DNA of 64,000 nt from a bacterium (GCA_014803525.1 JAAVBP010000004.1:54918-118917), one strand, 5' to 3'. Shown: positions 1,208 to 63,900, counted from the first letter of the stretch. Made by a program: numbers and translations. Notes: generated by a model not told the origin, from the sequence alone.

Positions 1208-1507
1208 TCATTCGTTATCCGATTCGGATTTGTTTGCTTGTTTTATTTTTGCCATCATTTTGCGCAGTTTGATGTATCGACGATCAAAACGACGTGCCTG
1301 CATCATTTTGTACCCCATTACGGTTATTCGTTGCATGATATCCGCCGGGATTTGGGCGGTGCCGGCCTCAAACTCGGCCAAATCCATCGGCAATACACGC
1401 AACAGTACCGCCGCTGCATCAATTGATAGCTGACAATTCTCGCGCGCAAGTCTGATTGCGCGCCCCAGACGCACGGCCGTGTCATCGATTGGTGTTTTGT
1501 TTTGCAT
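1208..1507 (-). CDS. small XRE-family helix-turn-helix transcriptional regulator (paralog family member)
   Basis: HTH pattern LGRAIRLARENCQLSIDAAAVLL...EFEAG; AAGGAGG Shine-Dalgarno before the ATG; paralogous to 47554..47844. Confidence 0.7.
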   Translation of the reverse strand: MQNKTPIDDTAVRLGRAIRLARENCQLSIDAAAVLLRVLPMDLAEFEAGTAQIPADIMQRITVMGYKMMQARRFDRRYIKLRKMMAKIKQANKSESDNE

Positions 1508-1720
1508 TTTTTCCTCCTTTATCTTTTTTGCAAATAAAAAGTCCGCTTTGATGAGAAGCGGTTGGAGGTTAAGAACTACTGCAATGGTAGTGCTGTTTAT
1601 TCATATATATCACAGCCCTCCAACCAAGGTTGGAGCTTATTGCATGAGGTTCTTATACCCCGCATCGGTCATCACCCGATGCACGACCATTATAGCGGAT
1701 TGTTTTCAGTTTTGCAAATT
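1508..1720 (-). promoter_or_regulatory. conserved structured leader element, copy L1: sigma70 promoter + multi-helix RNA + terminator hairpin + Shine-Dalgarno
   Basis: Minus strand has TTGCAA at 1712-1717, a 17-nt spacer and TATAAT at 1689-1694. The leader contains the GGTTGGAGG...CCTCCAACC helix, an alternative CTCCAACC/GGTTGGAG pairing, and the ccgcttctcatcaaagcgg + T-run terminator just before the Shine-Dalgarno. Confidence 0.6.
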
Positions 1721-16457: not shown

Positions 16458-16959
16458 GAATCAAAATCCACATGAATATATTCTTGTAAACCCGGCAAAT
16501 CTATTATATAATAATACATGAATCCAGATGGGAATTTGGGTTCGGGGCCTTAGAAAAGCTCGTCAAGTACGGTGCAAATTGCATCTGTCTGAAATCCATA
16601 TACGGCTGCATCCTTGCACCGTTACACTCTGGCAACAATATATGGTCGGGGTGCCGTTGGTTATAAGATTTGTCAAAGGCTAACGGGGGCACTTACTTGA
16701 TGCTTTTTCTAACACCCCGGCCTTCCACTCTCTGGCGGGTTTATTTTTTTACAGGGCGGTAGTTTGGCAATTGTGCACCTTCTCATCAACAGTGCCGCCG
16801 CCCAACTGTTTTATTCTTTCAGAATTCATATGCGTTATGCACGCATCCGTGACCCGTGCGTGTCATGACCAGAAAATCCCACGCGAACCCACCACGGGAA
16901 TTATATTTCCGCGGGCCCCGGTATGGGCGGAGGCAAATAGATTAAGCCCAAAACGAACT

Positions 16960-17203
16960 ATTTGCATTCAAAAAAACAATCCGTTATAACATGCGGGCAT
17001 CGGGTGACGCCCGGCGCGAGGCTTCAAAACCTCTGTGCAAGAATCCTCCAGCATTGGTTGGAGGGTCGTGATATAAATGAATAAACGACGCTACATCTTG
17101 CAGTAGTTTTGAACCTCCAACCGTCTTTCGTCAGGACGGTGTTTTTTATTAATAAAAACCACGGAGGAAAAAATATAAACCAATTGACAAGACGGCCCAT
17201 CGC
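16960..17203 (+). promoter_or_regulatory. conserved structured leader element, copy L2 (plus orientation)
   Basis: TTGCAT at 16962-16967, 17-nt spacer, TATAAC at 16985-16990; same helices as L1/L3/L4; terminator ccgtctttcgtcaggacgg + T-run. Confidence 0.55.
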
Positions 17204-17467
17204 ATGGGCGCAATGCTACGTCGGGCACGCCAGATGTGCCACATGTCGACAGATGATGCATCGATGCTGCTGCATATTATGCCAAACGAACTTGCACAAT
17301 ATGAACGTGGTGTATGCGAAATACCAATAAATATACTAGAGCACATTTTTATAATGGCATACAAAATGATACAGGTTCGTAAACAAGAAAAAAGATACCA
17401 GCACCAGCGTGTATTGTTTTACAAACTAAAAAAAGGAACAGATAAAGCACGAGTGACAGATTACTGA
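17109..17467 (+). pseudogene. XRE-type HTH regulator paralog, apparently degraded (start codon lost, frameshift)
   Basis: The N-terminus (KNINQLTRRPIAW) is in a different frame from the body (MGAMLRRARQ...EIPINILE), compared with the intact paralog 47554..47844. Confidence 0.45.
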
Positions 17468-33262: not shown

Positions 33263-33850
33263 CTAAAACAGATATCCGATCGCGACCCCGGCGCGACTGT
33301 GACGCGCAGATATTTTTACCGGCACGTCCGATATACTGTAACGCAGGCGCGCACGCGACCATATCTCATATATTTTTATAAACGTATTGGCCGATATGTT
33401 TATCCGCATGCCAATGCCGCCACCATATATAAACCCGCGGTCATGAAAATGCGCGTCATCAAACTTTACGTCCGTAATGCCAATTTCCCCGATTGCATAC
33501 GGTGTGATGGCAAACGGTAAAATCGGCATTTCCAAGATGGACGTAATATTGCGCATACGCATTCCATCCACATCACGCCAAGACACATTTGCACCAACAG
33601 CAACACCATAAACATCAATTCCGGCAGTGATATTCGGCGCATCAAATTTGTATTTTTGTGTTTCGTTAAATTTATATCCCATTACATCTATTTTTGCGTG
33701 CGTTTTGGCACGAATATCAAATCCGGTGGATATGTAAAAGTAATTATCCTTATGCTCTGTTATACAATCTGAATATATTTCGATTATTTCATCCGCATAT
33801 GCCATGCCACTTATCAGCCCCAGCGTTAATGCGATTGCTGCCTTACGCAT
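33263..33850 (-). CDS. small outer-membrane beta-barrel protein (OMP3)
   Basis: Start MRKAAIALTLGLISGMAYA; C-terminal ...AIGYLF. Confidence 0.55.
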   Translation of the reverse strand: MRKAAIALTLGLISGMAYADEIIEIYSDCITEHKDNYFYISTGFDIRAKTHAKIDVMGYKFNETQKYKFDAPNITAGIDVYGVAVGANVSWRDVDGMRMRNITSILEMPILPFAITPYAIGEIGITDVKFDDAHFHDRGFIYGGGIGMRINISANTFIKIYEIWSRARLRYSISDVPVKISARHSRAGVAIGYLF

Positions 33851-34035
33851 ATTTGCCCCCATTGTTACAATCAAACAAAAAACCACTGGAAACAAATTTC
33901 AAGTGGTTGGAGGTTAAGAACAACCTAGGGATTGCCCACCTTATTCAGATATATCGGTGGCCTCCAACCGTGGTTGGAAAAAATGCGCCTGCGTCCGTAC
34001 CAGACGCACCCTAGGATATCGAGGTTCTTAAGCCC
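33851..34035 (-). promoter_or_regulatory. structured leader element, variant copy B1, upstream of OMP3
   Basis: GGTTGGAGG...CCTCCAACC helix, outer helix TAAGAAC/GTTCTTA, inserted tgcgtc...gacgca hairpin, ccact...agtgg + T-run terminator, then Shine-Dalgarno. Confidence 0.5.
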
Positions 34036-34057
34036 CTTTTACCTTTGTAACAAGGAT

Positions 34058-34273
34058 TCAAATATACCTTGCATTATATAATGTTGTTTGAATAAATTCA
34101 AACGCAAAAATACAACGCCCGTCCAAAATTTGAACGGGACTGGAGTCAGCTATTGCACGGTAAGATGCAAGCGATTTATTGTTATTATTCATCACCATCC
34201 AGTCCCATTTGGGATGGATGTATGAATTTCGCACATACGGGCGCTTACCGGGCCTGGATAGCTGATCCAGCAT
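34058..34273 (-). CDS. small hypothetical protein (71 aa) with its own promoter and a strong Shine-Dalgarno
   Basis: Upstream on the minus strand: TTGCAA, 17-nt spacer, TACTAT, then AAGGAG 6 nt before the ATG. Confidence 0.35.
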   Translation of the reverse strand: MLDQLSRPGKRPYVRNSYIHPKWDWMVMNNNNKSLASYRAIADSSPVQILDGRCIFAFEFIQTTLYNARYI

Positions 34274-34289
34274 AATAAGTCTCCTTACT

Positions 34290-34740
34290 ACAAAGGTAAT
34301 AGTATCCTAAAAAAATCCAAATTGCAAATATTAACTGGATTGCCCCGCCTGCGTTCCTTTTGTCACTCCCGCGGCGGCGGGAGTGGGTCTATTAAATTTT
34401 AATGGTTTTATCTGCACAATTTAACGCAATCGTTTTGTAATAACTTTATAGACCCTATTCCCGTTCTTTGAAAAACAATTATCAATTGTTTTTCAAATTC
34501 AGTGCGGGAATGACAAATTTGCCACCCCCCGATGGCTGGCGCCATCACCCCCCGCCCACGGCGGTGGGAATTAATACATTCCACACTCGGACGAATTGCC
34601 CCCGCCTGGGCGGGGGCTGGCAGTCGATAGACTGACTGGGGGTGGCCTGTTACGTACCCCGCGACACTTGCCACCCCCCGGTGCTACGCACCACCCCCCG
34701 CCCGCGGCGGTGGGCATTAGTATATTGCAAGCACAAATAA
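34290..34740. repeat. cluster of GC-rich palindromic repeat modules
   Basis: Same module set as 1735-2030 and 48076-48560, plus modules tttgtcactcccgcggcggcgggagtgggtctatt and tttatagaccctattcccgttctttgaaaaacaattatcaattgtttttcaaattcagtgcgggaatgacaa (the latter also at 54365-54440). Confidence 0.65.
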
Positions 34741-34799
34741 CTTTTTCACTATATCGCTGCCCCTGCCTGTACTAGGCTCAGATTAAAGTTCTCCTCCGG

Positions 34800-35095
34800 C
34801 GGAGGAGAACTTGGACCGTTCGCCGGACTCCTGAAAATTTATTAGAATGATACAGATGCACGAAAAATGGGTTGCAAAAAAACAAAGCTCGTTTACCGGG
34901 CTCTCGTAAAATAATTAGAATGATGTAGATATGTGAAATTCCGGCAACGTAGTGTACAAGACGTACATGAGTTACAAAAATAAAGCCCGTTCGCTAGACT
35001 CCTGAAAATTTATTAGAATGATACAGATGCACGAAAAATGGGTTGCGTAGTGTATTGGACATACATGAGCAACCCATTTTACGCGCAGATGCGTT
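34800..35095. repeat. tandem direct repeat, unit about 90 bp in three diverged copies with an about 180 bp period, ending in a 12-bp-stem hairpin
   Basis: gactcctgaaaatttattagaatgatacagatgcacgaaaaatgggttgc occurs at about 34817 and about 34997 with a diverged copy between; terminal hairpin aaaatgggttgc...gcaacccatttt. Confidence 0.6.
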
Positions 35096-35096
35096 A

Positions 35097-37358
35097 TTAT
35101 AATAAATTTCTTTTGTTGTTTGCGTCCGGCGCCGACACAATCCCATCCGCCTCCATCCGTTCGATAAAGGTCGCGGCCTTGTTATAACCAATGCCAAGGC
35201 GCCGCTGCAGATATGAAATTGTCGGCTTTTTATCACGGATAACGATTTCTTTGGCCTGTTCATACAGGTCGGCATTTTTATCCGCGCGAATTTCGGCGGC
35301 CGATGGCGCGGGCGCTGCGGTGGCGGGTTCTTCTTCGCCCTCGGTCACGCCGGCGGCATATTCGGGCGCACCCTGGGCGCGCAGGAAATCGCCAATCGTA
35401 TTTAATTCGGCGTCTGATATAAATGCGCCGTGGATACGCACGGGAACGCGTCCGGCCTCGCTAAACAACATGTCACCACAGGCCAGCAGGTTTTCCGCCC
35501 CACCCTCGCCCAATGTTGTGCGGGAATCGATATTGCTGCGCGCCTGGAATGAAATACGTGTCGGGAAATTCGCCTTGATAACGCCGGTGATTGTTGTCGC
35601 GTCCGGACGCTGGGTCGCCATAACCAGGTGAATACCCGCCGCGCGCGCCTTTTGCGCGATACGCTGGACACAGGCTTCGACCTCTTTACGGGCCAGTGCC
35701 ATCAGGTCGGCAACCTCGTCAATAATAATGACGATATACGGCATGTCGTTAATCTCAACCTCTTGCGTTTCGAATAATAACTCACCGGTAACCTCGTCCG
35801 TACCGACGGCAACCTGGCGCGTTATTTTTTCGCCCGACGCGCGTTTGGCAGCGGCCGCCTCGTTATAACTTTCGATATTGCGCGCATCCAAAACCTGTAA
35901 TTGTTTATAACGCTCTTCCATTTCGCGCACCGCCCATTTCAGTGCATTTACCGCCGCCGCCGGATCCAGTTTTACAATCGGCGTAATCAGATGCGGCACA
36001 TCATCCCAGAATCCAAAGTCAACACCCTTAGGATCAATAATAATCAGTTTACACTTATCCGGTGTAAAGTGATAAACGATGGATGTAATAATTGATTGAA
36101 CAAATACAGACTTACCCGAACCCGTACGCCCCGCAACCAACATGTGCGGCATTTTCGCCAAATCGAAATACATCGGATTTCCGCCAATATCCACACCCAA
36201 TGCCAATGGAATTTTATACTTAGAATTTACAAACGTCGGGTTTTCAACCAATTCGCGATAACGCACGGTTTGCGTTGTTAAATTCACCATTTCCACACCG
36301 ATAAAGTTCGTGCGTGGAATATGCGCAATACGCATGTTTTCGGTCGCCATGGCGCGGGTCATATCCTTGACCGTTTCGGTGATTTTCGCAATGCGCATAC
36401 CGGTATCAGGCTCAAATTCATACAACGTCACAATCGGTCCCGGTTTAATACCAACAACCTTGCCGTATACACCAAATTCTTCAAAGTGATCTTCCAATGA
36501 CGCGGCATTACGCTTTAATTCGGGCGTAATAACATTTTTACCAAATCCCGATTTTTCCAAAAATGCCGGATCCGGCAACTCATACGCACCAGTTGCGATT
36601 GCAACACTGCGACTGCGCGGGGCGCGGGCCTCTTTGGCGGGTGCCGGTACACTGGGTTCGGCGGCCACACGGCGACGGGACGTACGAATGCGCGATACAA
36701 CGGATTTTTCGCCCTTATCTTCTGTACCAACCACGACCACATCTTCTGTATCAGATGCCGGCATCGCGCCGCGGGTTAAATGGAACGCCGCCATCAGCCA
36801 ACGCAGCGCGCGCCACGCCCGCGCCAGGGCACTTTTCACATGCGACCATTTGATATGCAAAACAATGCCGCCCATAACAATAAACACGCACAAAAACAAA
36901 ATACCAAACAGAACTGTCCATCCGCCGACCAATGCGCTGATATCCGTCGCCACACATGCCCCAGCCAGCCCCCCAAACGTCGAAGACGGCACCAATAATC
37001 CAAAACCCGCCGCCCCCGCACATACGGCAATAAATCCTTTTAATAAATTATATTCGGGCGCACTATCATCCGACATATTCAGCATTAAAACAAAACCACG
37101 CCGCGCCACACACAGAAAAACAAATAACGCCGGCATAAATCCAATCAAGTAACGAACCACGCCAACAACATTTCCAATAATGCTTTGTGTTCCCATATTG
37201 CCGGCGGCCGCAAACCCGGTTAAATACGGATTATGAAACATTAATGCGAACGTCAACCATGCCCCCAGTCCCAATGTCACCGCACCAGCAACGCGCCACG
37301 CCAGTTTTTTCAGTGCCCCGGCAACACTGTCTGGTAAAAATTTTGATTGTTCGCTCAT
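35097..37358 (-). CDS. ftsK: DNA translocase FtsK
   Basis: N-terminal transmembrane region; Walker A motif GRTGSGKS; C-terminal gamma winged-helix (TISYLQRRLGIGYNKAA); start at the internal Met (MSEQSKF...). Confidence 0.9.
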   Translation of the reverse strand: MSEQSKFLPDSVAGALKKLAWRVAGAVTLGLGAWLTFALMFHNPYLTGFAAAGNMGTQSIIGNVVGVVRYLIGFMPALFVFLCVARRGFVLMLNMSDDSAPEYNLLKGFIAVCAGAAGFGLLVPSSTFGGLAGACVATDISALVGGWTVLFGILFLCVFIVMGGIVLHIKWSHVKSALARAWRALRWLMAAFHLTRGAMPASDTEDVVVVGTEDKGEKSVVSRIRTSRRRVAAEPSVPAPAKEARAPRSRSVAIATGAYELPDPAFLEKSGFGKNVITPELKRNAASLEDHFEEFGVYGKVVGIKPGPIVTLYEFEPDTGMRIAKITETVKDMTRAMATENMRIAHIPRTNFIGVEMVNLTTQTVRYRELVENPTFVNSKYKIPLALGVDIGGNPMYFDLAKMPHMLVAGRTGSGKSVFVQSIITSIVYHFTPDKCKLIIIDPKGVDFGFWDDVPHLITPIVKLDPAAAVNALKWAVREMEERYKQLQVLDARNIESYNEAAAAKRASGEKITRQVAVGTDEVTGELLFETQEVEINDMPYIVIIIDEVADLMALARKEVEACVQRIAQKARAAGIHLVMATQRPDATTITGVIKANFPTRISFQARSNIDSRTTLGEGGAENLLACGDMLFSEAGRVPVRIHGAFISDAELNTIGDFLRAQGAPEYAAGVTEGEEEPATAAPAPSAAEIRADKNADLYEQAKEIVIRDKKPTISYLQRRLGIGYNKAATFIERMEADGIVSAPDANNKRNLL

Positions 37359-47513: not shown

Positions 47514-47548
47514 GTAAAAAACACCGGGAAACCCCGGCGTTTTTTTAT
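47514..47548. terminator. bidirectional intrinsic terminator (caccgggaaaccccggcg + T-run)
   Basis: Hairpin with flanking A and T runs. Confidence 0.65.
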
Positions 47549-47553
47549 TTATT

Positions 47554-47844
47554 TTACAATACGGCATCCACAGCCTGTTTTGTCATTCGCAAAAAATCTC
47601 GTTTTTTTATATATCGTTTTTCCAGTACGCGAACCTGTTTCATCTTGTATCCCATTATAAACATGTTTTCCAGTATCTCTATCGGGATTTCTGTTATGCC
47701 GTGTTCGTATTCAAACATCTCGTGCGGGGTTACGCGTAATAATTCCGCCGCATCATCGGTTGGCATACCGCAAACGCGTCGGGCGCGACGCAGCATTGCG
47801 CCCATACGACCGGCTGTTTCATTGATTTGTTTATATTTTGCCAT
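47554..47844 (-). CDS. small XRE-family HTH transcriptional regulator (paralog family member)
   Basis: HTH pattern GAMLRRARRVCGMPTDDAAELLRV...; AAGGAG Shine-Dalgarno. Confidence 0.7.
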   Translation of the reverse strand: MAKYKQINETAGRMGAMLRRARRVCGMPTDDAAELLRVTPHEMFEYEHGITEIPIEILENMFIMGYKMKQVRVLEKRYIKKRDFLRMTKQAVDAVL

Positions 47845-48075
47845 GTGTTTTCTCCTTACTTTTTGTTAATAAAAAAAGCCCGCTTTGACGAGAAGCGGTT
47901 GGAGGTTCAAAACTATTCGATCGATAGCGCTGTTTATTTATGTATATCACAGCCCTCCAACCGAGTTGGAGTTTTGACCGATGAGGTTTTGAAGCCTCGC
48001 GCCGGGCGTCACCCGATGCATACATATTATATCGGATTGTTTTCAGATTTGCAAATTATTATAGCCACCCCCCGG
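47845..48075 (-). promoter_or_regulatory. conserved structured leader element, copy L3
   Basis: TTGCAA at 48069-48074, 17-nt spacer, TATAAT at 48046-48051 (minus strand); conserved helices; ccgcttctcgtcaaagcgg + T-run terminator; Shine-Dalgarno. Confidence 0.6.
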
Positions 48076-48560
48076 TGCTACGCACCACCCCCCCGCCAAC
48101 GGCGGTGGGCATTATACCGAGCCTAGCACCAAGCTAATGGCCCCCGCCCGGGCGGGGGCTGGCGTGTGAAACACGACTGGGGGTGGCCAATATTTTCTGG
48201 ATTGCGACGGCTGCACTCCTTTTGTCACTCCCGCGCAGGCGGGAGTGGGTCTATTAAATTAATACTTCTTTGTTCTGATGTATGCACGAATGCAAAAATA
48301 GGAAAAAACTAAACAACTTTATAGACCCTATTCCTGCCTTCGCAGGAATGACAAATTTGCCACCCCCGGTGCTACGCACCACCCCCCGCAATACACCCAA
48401 AAAAACATCCGTTTTTGCGGGGCCCAGAAACGGCGGTGGGCATTGGTATGTCACAAGCATGAATAACTTTTGCACTCTTTCGCTATTCTCTTTTTCACTA
48501 AAAAAACGCCGGCAACTGCCGGGCCCCGCGGAAATATAATTTCCGTGGGTGGATTTCCGG
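48076..48560. repeat. cluster of GC-rich palindromic repeat modules, including an about 170-bp segment nearly identical to 1890-2060
   Basis: Direct comparison: gccaccccc(c)ggtgctacgcaccaccccccgcaat(a/c)cacccaaaaaaacatccgtttttg..cccagaaacggcggtgggcat...tttttcactaaaaaaacg + terminator hairpin. Confidence 0.65.
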
Positions 48561-48567
48561 CGTTTTT

Positions 48568-49845
48568 TTAGTGTTTCCCACCAATCTTGGTGCGCCCACC
48601 CATAAGCGGTTGCAGGCATTTCGGAATATTTACCGACCCGTCTGCATTCTGGTGATTTTCCAAAACCGGCACCAGCGCACGCGGCATCGCAATACCCGTA
48701 TTGTTAAGTGTTGCACAGAATTGCAACGTGCCATCCGCCGCGCGGTAACGCGTGTTTGTACGGCGCGCCTGGAATTGGCCAATGGATGAACAGCTGCCCA
48801 GCTCGCGATAGTTATTTTCACTGGGGAACCAGGCCTCGACATCATTCATTTTAACCTTGTTGAAACCCATGTCGCCGGTGCATGCCGCGATAACGCGATA
48901 TGGTAATTCCAAATCCTCCATAACCTCACACAAATTATTCAGCAAGAATTCATGCATTTTGTCACTTTGTTCCGGTGTACAGTAAATGTATTGTTCCACC
49001 TTGTTAAACTGGTGCACGCGTATCAGACCGCGTGTATCGCGACCGGCGGCACCGGCCTCTTTACGAAAGCATGCAGAAAATCCCGCATACATCAGCGGCA
49101 GGTCGGATTCATTCAGAACCTCGCCCGAATGCAGGGAATTCATTATAATTTCCGATGTCCCGGCCAGACAACGATCTGTACCCGATAACATAAACACATC
49201 GTCATTCATCACCGACATATCCGCGCCCATAAAGTGTCCGGCATTAAATATTGTTTGCGGACGCGTAATCGACGGACATTCGATAAAGCGAAATCCCTTG
49301 GCGATTAATTTCTGGATCACATACGTTTCAATGGCCAGTTGTAATTCTGCGGCCTCGCCCATTAATGCATACGTGCGCGCGCCACAAATATTTGAAATCT
49401 TTTCCGGCGCCCACCATCCGTTCATATCCAGCAAATCCCACTGTGCCCGCGGGGTAAAATCAAATTTGCGCGGCGTGCCAACGCGGCGAATCTCAACATT
49501 TTCCGTATCGTCCGCGCCAATTGGTGTATCACTTGACGGGATCTGGGGTACGCGATGCATCAGGTCAGACAGCTGCGCCTCTTTTTCTTCCAACTCTGCG
49601 ATTTCATTTGCAATCTCGGCCGCAATTTTCTTGGATGCCGCGATCAACGGCGCACGGTCGGTGGCCGTCGGTATTTCGCGTGTAATTTTATTCTTTTCCG
49701 CCGTCTTGGTCTGGGTCAGTGTTTTCAGTTCACGCACACGCACGTCCAGTGCCAGAATATCATCGACTACGTCAGGCAGATTTTTGACATTGCATGCGTT
49801 TTTTACAACATCCGGGTTTTCACGTATAAATTTAATATCCAGCAT
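48568..49845 (-). CDS. serS: serine--tRNA ligase
   Basis: N-terminal coiled-coil plus class II catalytic core; start at the internal Met (MLDIKFIRENP); the ORF-track start is over-extended. Confidence 0.9.
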   Translation of the reverse strand: MLDIKFIRENPDVVKNACNVKNLPDVVDDILALDVRVRELKTLTQTKTAEKNKITREIPTATDRAPLIAASKKIAAEIANEIAELEEKEAQLSDLMHRVPQIPSSDTPIGADDTENVEIRRVGTPRKFDFTPRAQWDLLDMNGWWAPEKISNICGARTYALMGEAAELQLAIETYVIQKLIAKGFRFIECPSITRPQTIFNAGHFMGADMSVMNDDVFMLSGTDRCLAGTSEIIMNSLHSGEVLNESDLPLMYAGFSACFRKEAGAAGRDTRGLIRVHQFNKVEQYIYCTPEQSDKMHEFLLNNLCEVMEDLELPYRVIAACTGDMGFNKVKMNDVEAWFPSENNYRELGSCSSIGQFQARRTNTRYRAADGTLQFCATLNNTGIAMPRALVPVLENHQNADGSVNIPKCLQPLMGGRTKIGGKH

Positions 49846-53754: not shown

Positions 53755-53782
53755 CACGGGGCATCTGCCCCGTGTTTTTATT
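53755..53782. terminator. bidirectional intrinsic terminator (cacggggcatctgccccgtg + T-run)
   Basis: Hairpin plus T-run. Confidence 0.65.
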
Positions 53783-53996
53783 CTTTATCCAACGCCATAT
53801 CCATTTTGACGGCGTATTTAATTATGCGTTTCAACGTGTCGCGTGGGATTAAATCCTTGCCTTGTTCATATCGGTGCAGTTGCTTGCCACCGCACCCCAA
53901 CAAGTGTTGCAATTGCTGTGATGTTATCTTGCCTTTTTCTCGGATTGATTGTATCACATGACCGAAATAATCGGCGCTGACTATTATTGTTGACAT
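53778..53996 (-). CDS. small XRE-type HTH protein (72 aa)
   Basis: ITSQQLQHLLGCGGKQLHRYEQG HTH; AAGGAG Shine-Dalgarno 8 nt before the internal ATG (the ORF-track start at 54041 lies inside the leader terminator). Confidence 0.6.
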   Translation of the reverse strand: MSTIIVSADYFGHVIQSIREKGKITSQQLQHLLGCGGKQLHRYEQGKDLIPRDTLKRIIKYAVKMDMALDKE

Positions 53997-54229: not shown

Positions 54230-54450
54230 TTAATCCGGGTTTCTCCCTGTCACGTTCGCCCCCCGCAAGAATCCCCTTTTGTCACTCCTGCGCAGGCAGG
54301 AGTGGGTCTATAAAATATTTGTTCATACAGGACGTTTTGTGTTGCAACAGACTTATCATTTACTATGGTTTATAGACCCTATTCCCGTTCTTTGAAAAAC
54401 AATTATCAATTGTTTTTCAAATTCAGTGCGAGAATGACAACATACAAGCG
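54230..54450. repeat. palindromic repeat modules (cactcctgcgcaggcaggagtg; tttatagaccctattcccg...gaatgacaa)
   Basis: Same modules as 34350-34510 and 48210-48360. Confidence 0.6.
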
Positions 54451-61374: not shown

Positions 61375-61568
61375 CACAGTTGTTTCTGCGTGGCTGTGAA
61401 AAAGTGCAGAAATATAAAAACTAAGCAGCCCTTCAACGACTTACCGTGGTTGGAGGGCGCTGAATAGGGCCCACGGGTCTAATAAGGCGCGCTATACTGT
61501 GTGTAGATATGAACCTCCAACCATCTGAATTTTTTCCGATGGTTTTATTTTTTGCAAAGGGGGAAAAT
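61375..61568 (+). promoter_or_regulatory. structured leader element, variant copy L5
   Basis: GGTTGGAGG...CCTCCAACC helix at 61448-61520, then a T-run and AGGGGGA Shine-Dalgarno before the ATG at 61569. Confidence 0.45.
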
Positions 61569-61919
61569 ATGTCGGGAAAGCCATATCGCACAACGTTATT
61601 TGACATTAAACTGGGTGAATTAATTGCCATGCATCGCCGCATGCTGGGCATGTCACAGAAAGATTTAGCAGAAAAACTTGGTGTATCATTTCAGCAAATA
61701 CAAAAATACGAAACCGCCAAGAACAATCTATCTGCATCGCGCCTTTTTGAAATTGCAACCGTATTTGAAATGTCGGTTGGTCAACTGGTCGACGGCACAG
61801 AACAAAAATATATACTGGATTCAACAGGCACGGCAATACTGAAAATCATGTATAAAAAAATGAACTTTCAACAGCGGCTTGCACTGCTGCAAGTTGCACG
61901 CACAATGATTTCTGTTTAG
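61569..61919 (+). CDS. XRE-family HTH transcriptional regulator with a C-terminal extension
   Basis: LGMSQKDLAEKLGVSFQQIQKYETAKN HTH. Confidence 0.75.
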   Translation: MSGKPYRTTLFDIKLGELIAMHRRMLGMSQKDLAEKLGVSFQQIQKYETAKNNLSASRLFEIATVFEMSVGQLVDGTEQKYILDSTGTAILKIMYKKMNFQQRLALLQVARTMISV

Positions 61920-63201: not shown

Positions 63202-63519
63202 TTATTTTTTCTTTTGTTTCGCCGTTTTATCTTTTTTCCATGTGCACATACCCATGGTATGCAGTGGCAATGGCGGATCTGGCAGATTTACCGTACATAT
63301 ATTACGCATCTTATCTTCTAACACTGCCGGATGCCCGTTTAACTGGGTTGCCAATATCTTCGTTAATAATAATATCCGCTGCATGGGCAGCTTTTTGTTC
63401 GGATTTTCTGTAAAAAAAAGATATAAATCAATAATTATCTTTTCAACATCCGTTTCTTCCAATATCATGTTCACATCCGCATTATCTAATAATTGATGCA
63501 GTTGGCGCATCGCCGTCAA
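63202..63519 (-). CDS. hypothetical protein
   Basis: ORF overlapping 63482..63712 in another frame; possibly one frameshifted gene. Confidence 0.3.
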   Translation of the reverse strand: MTAMRQLHQLLDNADVNMILEETDVEKIIIDLYLFFTENPNKKLPMQRILLLTKILATQLNGHPAVLEDKMRNICTVNLPDPPLPLHTMGMCTWKKDKTAKQKKK

Positions 63520-63712
63520 AATATATTTTGGTAACCTGGGTATGTGGGCGACGCACGAATTTATCCATTTCCTGGTGCGCCATGCGCATTAATAAACTTA
63601 TATTCGTGACCGACGTTTCATAATCAGGATTTTTGTTATAGAAATCATTTAGTCTATAAATTAAATCAGCTGGATTATCCGGCATGGATGTTATTTGCTG
63701 TTTTTTGGTCAT
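63482..63712 (-). CDS. small hypothetical protein preceded by a leader element
   Basis: Start MTKKQQITSM with a GGGGG Shine-Dalgarno; leader copy B2 upstream. Confidence 0.35.
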   Translation of the reverse strand: MTKKQQITSMPDNPADLIYRLNDFYNKNPDYETSVTNISLLMRMAHQEMDKFVRRPHTQVTKIYFDGDAPTASIIR

Positions 63713-63900
63713 ATTCGCCCCCTGTTGTTTTTTATTAAAAAACCACCAGAAAAATTTCAAGTGGTTGGAGGTTCACTACTATATTCAACTACAGCGCTGC
63801 TTATTCAACATATTCACAGCCCTCCAACCGAGGTTGGAGATTTTCTGCATAAACAGGTTGAATGGAGTAGTGAGCTCCGCCCACGGGGTTACCCGCCGGC
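63713..63900 (-). promoter_or_regulatory. structured leader element, variant copy B2, with promoter
   Basis: Minus strand has TTGCAA, a 17-nt spacer and TATAAT about 63925-63897; helices CACTACT/AGTAGTG and ATTCAAC/GTTGAAT; GGTTGGAGG/CCTCCAACC; hairpin + T-run; Shine-Dalgarno. Confidence 0.5.

Follow-up and report, generated by a model that had tools for sequence, protein, structure and literature searches.

A stretch of 64,000 nt from a bacterial genome (GCA_014803525.1, JAAVBP010000004.1:54918-118917; hereafter the window) contains seven copies of a structured leader RNA, one of which lies immediately upstream of a gene for a small XRE-type helix-turn-helix (HTH) protein at 47554-47844(-), the focal gene of this study. 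The leader is a clade-wide, multi-copy RNA family that has not been catalogued, and sequence comparisons suggest that it gates XRE regulators and, in a sister subtype, surface-protein genes. The best model for its action, which we hold to be probable with some reserve, is a default-off transcription attenuator placed before each small HTH gene. An earlier note on this DNA had described a dispersed regulator-plus-leader cassette. This cassette is real and conserved and recurs in many metagenome-assembled genomes (MAGs), yet it is one branch of a larger leader family that also fronts many genes for secreted or surface proteins, and its layout parallels the Brt/Trp system of Bartonella.

Structure, recurrence and distribution of the leader RNA

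The leader core GGTTGGAGG occurs 14 times in the window compared to 0.36 expected occurrences, and the 14 occurrences form seven pairs (GGTTGGAGG ... CCTCCAACC) with a spacing of 47-57 nt, a recurrence far beyond chance. Each copy has the same order of elements, namely a promoter (TTGCAA-17-TATAAT), the 5' hairpin P0, two outer helices (P1 and P2) around the hairpins P3 (CUCCAAC-N3-4-GUUGGAG) and P4, the segment CCUCCAACC, a hairpin rich in GC and followed by a U run, a Shine-Dalgarno (SD) sequence, and the start codon. A covariance model (R1) built from a MAFFT alignment of 18 HTH-type leaders recovers the seven copies, listed here with the promoter and terminator predicted by scanning the focal copy:

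1530-1683 (-): leader before the HTH gene at 1208-1507; R1, 159 bits
16996-17152 (+): leader before a start-less paralog of the focal gene, intact; R1, 152 bits
33870-34041 (-): leader of another subtype, with a hairpin inserted before P3, preceding the gene of a 195-aa signal-peptide protein (33266-33850); R1
47867-48020 (-): leader RNA of the focal gene; R1, 147 bits, E = 1.5e-41
47871-47898 (-): intrinsic terminator in the focal leader (CCGCUU...AAGCGG and a U run), ~22 nt before the ATG
48026-48054 (-): sigma-70-type promoter of the focal leader (TTGCAA-17-TATAAT), with the -10 box ~7 nt upstream of P0
54023-54175 (-): leader before the HTH gene at 53778-53996; R1, 160 bits
61354-61555 (+): divergent leader before the HTH gene at 61569-61919; R1, 43 bits, E = 4e-11
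63730-63900 (-): leader before a 76-aa open reading frame (ORF; 63485-63712) without a Pfam or NCBIfam match; R1

All five HTH genes of the window lie directly behind a leader, as had been claimed earlier, with start codons 13-26 nt after the R1 matches. The tie is not exclusive, as the copies at 33870-34041 and 63730-63900 precede other genes; the 195-aa protein behind the former has no Pfam match. A possible eighth, degenerate copy is a weak R1 match (12.8 bits, E = 0.038) at 34106-34272(-), which adjoins the 33870-34041 leader on its upstream side.

The leader is a real structured RNA. The focal copy has a minimum free energy (MFE) of -57.6 kcal/mol (z = -4.19), and in the alignment of the 18 HTH-type leaders 91.4% of cells are paired, compared to 37-50% with slid partners, with 19 pairs changed on both sides. 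The full architecture appears in the individual folds of 16 of these 18 leaders; the P2 helix is absent from the MFE fold of the other two (L052 and L003). A MAFFT alignment of all seven window leaders was out of structural register for the divergent copies, so the 18 HTH-type leaders were used, followed by a model-based alignment of the instances recovered by R1 (at least 101 in all). In this larger alignment, 94.6% of cells are paired against at most 48% in slid controls, compensatory changes occur in 36 of 42 pairs, and the covariation score is 0.57 compared to at most 0.076 in the controls. The larger alignment is fitted to the R1 model, and the MAFFT result is independent of it and agrees. 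P0, P1, P2, P4, and the terminator helix covary, the last in both alignments, and P3 is essentially invariant.

The promoter and terminator of the leader are putative, being recognized as patterns. The TATAAT box is kept 7-9 nt before P0 across species. The promoter spacer is conserved among four window copies and not across species, and a conserved operator within it was therefore rejected. A leader peptide was also rejected, as the sole ORF of the focal leader begins within the -10 box or adjacent to it, the 1530-1683 leader has a short unrelated ORF there, and the variation among leaders consists of compensatory base-pairing.

No part of the 64-kb window matched any of the 4227 families of Rfam 15 at the gathering score, and at the E-value level the focal leader had only chance-level matches (E >= 0.18), on which grounds identity with a known RNA family was rejected. 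The absence of gathering-score matches extended to tRNA, although the region is gene-dense with housekeeping genes. The 15 top-ranked of 1,085 results listed by a literature search for the leader core motifs were all unrelated papers. A scan for the core pattern in one genome per GTDB species gave at least 119 loci, most of which belong to MAGs of uncultured gut Alphaproteobacteria (many labelled Candidatus Enterousia, others "Rickettsiales bacterium" or "Alphaproteobacteria bacterium"). Among the matches listed, to which the remaining counts in this section also refer, the leader-bearing MAGs derive from rumen, chicken, and human gut, the window's own genome is absent, and the locus nearest to the window is 80% identical over 1.1 kb.

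The genes behind the leader fall into classes that follow its subtypes. Pfam HTH models were found in about one quarter of the 86 leader-adjacent ORFs (HTH_31 in 21, HTH_19 in 18, and HTH_3 in 16), and other domains include the Listeria-Bacteroides repeat, ephrin-receptor-like, and outer-membrane beta-barrel domains. By our own classification, 27 of the 86 encode small HTH proteins (median 78 aa), 44 have a signal-peptide-like N terminus, and 15 are of other types. Behind 21 of 24 leaders of the P0-hairpin subtype there is an HTH gene, and behind 43 of 62 leaders of the other subtypes, in which an additional hairpin stands before P3, a gene for a signal-peptide protein. Based on the share of signal-peptide proteins among the downstream ORFs, the inserted-hairpin subtype seems to define a surface-protein regulon in these MAGs. 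Behind this subtype (L004-L118 and the window copies at 33870-34041 and 63730-63900), HTH proteins are far outnumbered by proteins that have a signal peptide, are rich in cysteine, or contain repeats.

Small HTH proteins and the comparison with Brt/Trp of Bartonella

The earlier note counted five or more small HTH genes in the window, and ORFs are present at all five places that it named:

1208-1507 (-): paralog HTH gene, 99 aa, 41% identical to the focal protein (ORF, alignment)
17165-17467 (+): paralog HTH frame, 54% identical to the focal protein, with no start codon before an internal ATG at 17204 (alignment)
47554-47844 (-): focal small XRE-type HTH gene, 96 aa, monocistronic (ORF, AlphaFold model, Foldseek)
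53778-53996 (-): XRE HTH gene of another subtype, 72 aa, MSxIxVxAxYFG type (ORF, Pfam)
61569-61919 (+): XRE HTH gene, 116 aa, with a Trp-like HTH domain (LGVSFQQIQKYE) (Pfam HTH_3)

A family hidden Markov model made from leader-adjacent HTH proteins matched these five and no others among all six-frame ORFs of the window. The identities above bear out the claim of three clear paralogs, which share the core ...GAMLRRAR..C.M.TDDA..LL...P.E...YE.G..EIP..ILE..FIMGYKM.Q quoted at that time. The proteins of 53778-53996 and 61569-61919 (21-22% identity) belong to other XRE subtypes, and the MSxIxVxAxYFG type of the former is common behind the leader in other MAGs. In the Pfam search that had been proposed as a check, the 61569-61919 protein matched HTH_3 above the cut-off (50.8 bits vs. 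23), that of 53778-53996 fell just under (HTH_3 22.9 vs. 23, HTH_31 26.6 vs. 27), and the paralog trio gave sub-threshold matches to HTH_31/HTH_19 (16-19 bits, E ~1e-3).

Because Pfam support was uneven among the five proteins, the fold was checked directly with a structure model. The AlphaFold (AF2) model of the focal protein (predicted local distance difference test score 83.1) has helices at residues 9-24, 29-35, and 40-47 and a long helix at 55-95, and its best Foldseek matches in the PDB are ClgR, HipB, C.BclI, C.AhdI, Aca2, and lambda cI (probability 0.95-1.00, root-mean-square deviation 0.8-1.4 A over 45-52 columns). The focal protein thus superimposes on XRE/Cro-type structures, and its HTH character, which the earlier note would have given up had no HTH fold been predicted, is retained. 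Solved XRE/Cro-C1 proteins (ClgR, HipB, C-proteins, and Aca2) have the same N-terminal fold, to within ~1 A over ~50 residues, and ClgR also has a long C-terminal helix as in the focal protein, whereas their sequence identity to it is just 17-33%. In contrast to HipB, the C-proteins, and Aca2, there is no partner toxin, restriction-modification, or anti-CRISPR gene near the focal gene. We propose that the HTH proteins bind DNA as dimers of the XRE/Cro type. For Aca2, itself an HTH protein, binding to its promoter DNA and also to the leader of its own mRNA has been reported, so RNA binding by XRE proteins of this kind is conceivable.

The focal paralog family has few members. When 1.84 billion representative proteins were searched with a profile, 177 matches had E <= 1e-3, of which ~20-35 are full-length relatives of 90-108 aa and the remainder share the HTH alone. 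The leader is present for every member with upstream DNA, i.e., the three window copies, L069, and L127, the last being an independent metagenome contig in which a 66%-identical relative lies 20 nt behind a 146-bit leader.

One member of the trio has lost its start codon. The copy at 17165-17467 translates as one open frame, RKKYKPIDKTAHRMGAMLRRARQ... (RKKYKPIDKTAHRMGAML...), without an internal stop or frameshift, and is colinear in alignment with MAKYKQINETAGRMGAMLRRARR... (MAKYKQINETAGRMGAML...). No in-frame ATG, GTG, or TTG separates the stop at 17153 from the internal ATG at 17204, which is the first canonical start and lacks an SD sequence; compared to the copy starting at 47844, ~9 nt including ATG-GCA are missing after the SD sequence, which looks like an in-frame deletion. 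The earlier note was thus right about the lost ATG, and the frameshift that it also described was rejected, since translation and alignment show a single colinear frame. Its suggestion that the family is turning over holds only in part; one copy has lost its start codon, and with no frameshift or stop this copy is either no more than recently inactivated or gives, by inefficient translation, a protein that is shorter by 13 residues. The leader before it is fully intact.

The nearest described counterpart of this arrangement is the Brt/Trp system. Bartonella henselae has nine Brt RNAs of 194-203 nt, each immediately upstream of a small, poorly transcribed XRE gene, trp, one of which is a pseudogene (trp8, behind Brt8), and Brt has been reported as genus-specific (Tu et al., 2016; PMC5387305). 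No promoter can be discerned for the trp genes, trp1 is transcribed more strongly once the 3' stem-loop of Brt1 has been deleted in B. henselae, and the region upstream of badA, an adhesin gene, is bound by Trp1 and Trp3 (PMC8070961). Brt1 is among the most abundant transcripts, and an action in trans has also been proposed (PMC5387305, PMC8070961). The layout is the same here, with a multi-copy, promoter-proximal structured RNA immediately upstream of an XRE gene without its own promoter; five of the seven copies within 64 kb are so placed. We compared Brt/trp loci from B. grahamii pBGR3, B. henselae (trp1 and trp6/7), B. tribocorum, Bartonella sp. WD12.1, and B. harrusi. The predicted Brt fold consists of a 5' hairpin, outer helices around small hairpins, and a terminal hairpin followed by the SD sequence and start, and thus shares the helix order and three-segment logic of the window leader. 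The 5' arm of the Brt hairpin CCCGGAA/UUCCGGG is repeated (CUCCCGGAA) just after the outer helix, and RNAalifold prefers a long-range alternative helix, as for the window leader. In addition, the 3' stem-loop acts as an attenuator in Brt1 and is predicted to do so in the window leader, each system has one copy followed by an apparently disabled regulator gene, and a surface-protein link is common to both (BadA in Bartonella, leader-fronted secreted proteins here).

In the Brt of B. harrusi (L149 415-593), compared to L122 and L124, the arms have changed from CCCGG/CCGGG to CCCAG/CUGGG and the repeat from CUCCCGGAA to CUCCCAGAA, together. This triple change in sequence supports two alternative pairings in the Brt RNAs, a point not mentioned in the Brt papers (PMC5387305, PMC8070961).

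The two systems also differ. The conserved motifs are UUCCGGGAG/CUCCCGGAA in Brt and GGUUGGAGG/CCUCCAACC in the window leader; the longer Brt RNAs have a terminal hairpin without a U run, whereas the window leader is ~155 nt with a canonical U-run terminator; the window leader, unlike Brt, also fronts non-HTH genes; and the host here is an uncultured gut alphaproteobacterium with 47% GC, not Bartonella. With filters off, R1 had no match on the Brt strand of the B. grahamii pBGR3 and B. henselae Brt1, Brt6, and Brt7 loci (best E-value 0.08-0.11, elsewhere or on the wrong strand), and a covariance model of nine Brt copies from five Bartonella taxa (R2) found leaders in the window only at E ~9. 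Brt is not in Rfam. Identity with Brt/Trp was rejected on these reciprocal searches, together with the lack of BLASTP similarity between the focal protein and Trp and the absence of Bartonella among the matches listed in the leader-pattern scan.

Among the five window proteins, only that of 61569-61919 is Trp-like in sequence. Its HTH domain shares 46-48% identity with Trp, the alignment to the Trp protein of Bartonella pBGR3 having 48% identical and 69% positive positions over 61 aa, and the Trp family has been delimited by >=50% similarity of the HTH-XRE domain (PMC5387305). The hhalign probability with the Trp family is 99.4% for the HTH domain only, as the C-terminal halves do not align. 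Taken together, these comparisons suggest that the leader works by the same logic as Brt/Trp, and they do not support membership in that family. The HTH proteins probably regulate cell-surface genes, a role proposed because of the analogy with Trp and because the leader family stands in front of many surface-protein genes.

Proposed transcription attenuation and competing explanations

The anatomy of the cassette points to an attenuator that keeps the HTH gene off by default. The cassette would be self-contained, with a strong sigma-70 promoter, a ~155-nt structured leader, an intrinsic terminator, an SD sequence, and the HTH gene as payload. By default, the nascent leader would fold P0 and a four-helix domain (P1-P4), P3 forming first during transcription; with the domain closed, the terminator hairpin would form, transcription would stop ~20 nt before the start codon, and a stable ~155-nt RNA would be released while the regulator stays off. 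Expression would follow only once the invariant GGUUGGAGG is freed from its local partner CUCCAAC (P3) and pairs with the downstream CCUCCAACC, an antiterminator helix that would overlap the base of the terminator stem and let polymerase read through. Read-through would need a factor preventing P1/P3 formation, for which a small ligand, a protein, or another RNA are candidates, and the likely recognition surface is formed by the conserved unpaired nucleotides (GA...AAUAA in the P4 loop, GCUA and UAG at the junctions).

Several features of the leader are consistent with this model. The 13-26 nt between the terminator and the ATG are too short for a separate promoter, from which we infer that the HTH gene is transcribed only via read-through of the terminator. 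The leader has three mutually complementary segments, CUCCAAC, GUUGGAGG, and CCUCCAACC, which are invariant in the sample, the 3' arm and the downstream copy being fixed by the search pattern. In the single-sequence MFE fold, CUCCAAC pairs with GUUGGAGG as P3 and part of CCUCCAACC is held in P1, whereas RNAalifold on the alignment chooses the GGUUGGAGG:CCUCCAACC helix instead, enclosing P4. Forcing this helix in four HTH-type leaders costs 7-13 kcal/mol and removes or weakens the terminator hairpin. Classical terminator/antiterminator leaders likewise have a covarying multi-helix domain, conserved unpaired nucleotides, a terminator, and a competing helix, and the present leader combines a covariation-backed structure with a predicted expression platform of the last two. 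It differs from classical attenuators in having no Rfam match and no known ligand or binding protein, and its downstream genes are regulators and surface proteins rather than a metabolic pathway that would hint at a ligand.

Other observations weigh against the attenuator and its likeness to Brt/Trp. The antiterminator overlaps the terminator stem by 2-4 nt only and CCUCCAACC lies partly in P1, so other switch geometries are possible, and in some folds CCUCC pairs with the SD sequence, a predicted pairing that could possibly add a translational layer of control. No pair of P3 is changed on both sides in the 18-leader set (helix 5), and in the set of at least 101 instances (helix 6) both-sided changes occur in few sequences per pair; P3 as an RNA helix rests on invariance, and an invariant DNA palindrome could equally be a protein operator. 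Transcription start, termination, and read-through are read from the sequence. A function is assigned to the HTH proteins by analogy, and the focal protein gives no BLASTP alignment with Trp; by hhalign, its family matches Trp with 77% probability and 23% identity over 48 columns. What the focal paralog family has in common with Trp in sequence does not go beyond the generic HTH.

If the model is true, one uncatalogued multi-copy RNA element controls a small transcription factor family and many cell-surface proteins in widespread uncultured gut Alphaproteobacteria of human, chicken, and ruminant samples, giving a direct handle on surface remodeling in these hosts. It would be a well-supported addition to RNA family catalogues (>100 instances, strong covariation), the Brt/Trp virulence circuit of Bartonella would be an instance of a more general design and not a genus-specific oddity, and a second independent family with Brt-like logic would offer a comparative route to the trigger of Brt.

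A more far-reaching reading, which we put forward tentatively and regard as clearly less probable than the attenuator itself, is that the leader represents an undescribed high-copy riboswitch-like class of uncultured gut Alphaproteobacteria that gates an XRE and surface/secreted-protein regulon by one signal, with Brt, hitherto described as genus-specific, as a diverged branch of what would be one ancient class of the Alphaproteobacteria. The three segments would define the class and choose between a terminator-permitting and a read-through fold.

The leader could instead be the gene of a trans-acting small RNA, whose exposed anti-SD-like segment (CCUCC/CCUCCAACC) would pair with the ribosome binding sites of other mRNAs; the RNA would be the main regulator and the downstream gene would receive incidental read-through. 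We consider this unlikely. A strong promoter, 5'-terminal hairpin, and canonical terminator would indeed yield a stable ~155-nt RNA, and the leader at 16996-17152 is intact (152 bits) despite its start-less ORF, parallel to Brt8 and the pseudogene trp8 (PMC5387305), as are the abundance and proposed trans action of Brt1 to such a role (PMC5387305, PMC8070961). The tight conserved spacing to the SD sequence and start of a gene without an independent promoter, and the strict tie of leader subtype to gene class, argue for a role in cis, and the anti-SD segment is largely base-paired in the predicted fold. Cis and trans roles would, however, be compatible.

XRE dimers typically bind short palindromes, and the palindrome CTCCAAC-N3-4-GTTGGAG and its downstream repeat might be DNA operators for HTH dimers that act by autorepression or as a roadblock in the transcribed leader, RNA folding being secondary. 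The conservation of P3 as a sequence, essentially without compensatory change, the match of the focal fold to C-proteins, HipB, and cI, and the autoregulation suggested in the earlier note would all fit. This explanation is nevertheless improbable. The strong covariation of P0, P1, P2, P4, and the terminator is explained only by selection on RNA pairing, the same palindrome stands before secreted-protein genes and in many species with widely differing HTH proteins, and the concerted change of the three segments in Bartonella fits RNA pairing. Since the HTH proteins are 21-54% identical within one window, a single shared operator is also unlikely.

Lastly, the HTH genes might be remnants of mobile elements (prophage repressors, Cro-like proteins, or antitoxins) and the leader a repeat resembling miniature inverted-repeat transposable elements or repetitive extragenic palindromic (REP) sequences with a promoter, which we find very hard to credit. 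In its favor, phages and toxin-antitoxin modules often carry XRE proteins of similar size, the 61569-61919 protein matches phage regulator PHROGs and RstR below the cut-off, GC-rich REP-like repeats lie just upstream of several cassettes, and four leader copies are on predicted viral contigs, yet the HTH genes are monocistronic between terminators and have no adjoining toxin or phage gene, the cassette neighbors are housekeeping genes (dksA, typA, recA, and genes for a DnaJ-domain protein and an inositol monophosphatase) and a gene for an MFS transporter, the paralog trio matches no PHROG family and no curated NCBIfam family, the pattern occurs only 19 times in 2.9 million viral contigs, four times as a true leader and never before an HTH gene, and the compensatory changes indicate selection on RNA structure and not recent repeat copying. 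A prophage or toxin-antitoxin origin was rejected on the housekeeping context, the lack of a toxin, and the rarity of the element in viral contigs, and the earlier concern that the copies are fragments of a degraded prophage repressor region is likewise not borne out by the neighbors and the PHROG search.

Other features of the window

The four predicted viral contigs (IMG/VR) with a true leader are L131 (12021-12201), L137 (769-949), L132 (9516-9702), and L136 (8442-8621); the genes behind these leaders encode a membrane or secreted protein, a 171-aa unknown protein, and an ABC transporter, and the contigs may be misclassified host DNA or prophage cargo. After the focal HTH gene, scanning found one further hairpin:

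47524-47537: hairpin with flanking T and A runs

The convergent DnaJ-domain gene shares this hairpin, which is likely a terminator for both directions.

Several repeats accompany the cassettes. The palindrome TTTGCAAA or a near variant of it (noted at window 1520-1545 and 61555-61568 and in L009, L006, and L082) makes up the -35 region in several leaders and recurs between the terminator U run and the SD sequence in some copies; it could be a protein site or a mere consequence of A/T runs. Clusters of GC-rich palindromic REP-like repeats, in families such as GCCACCCCCCGGTGCTACGCACCACCCCCCGC and CCCGCCTGGGCGGGGGC, closely precede the promoters of several leaders and might be mobile repeats or serve as insulators or terminators:

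1780-1975: REP-like repeat cluster
16860-16930: REP-like repeat cluster
34300-34760: REP-like repeat cluster
48060-48620: REP-like repeat cluster
54275-54440: REP-like repeat cluster

Upstream of the 33870 leader, the intergenic region also contains a 60-nt unit in three direct copies (34816, 34889, and 34987) and one inverted copy (35069-35109).

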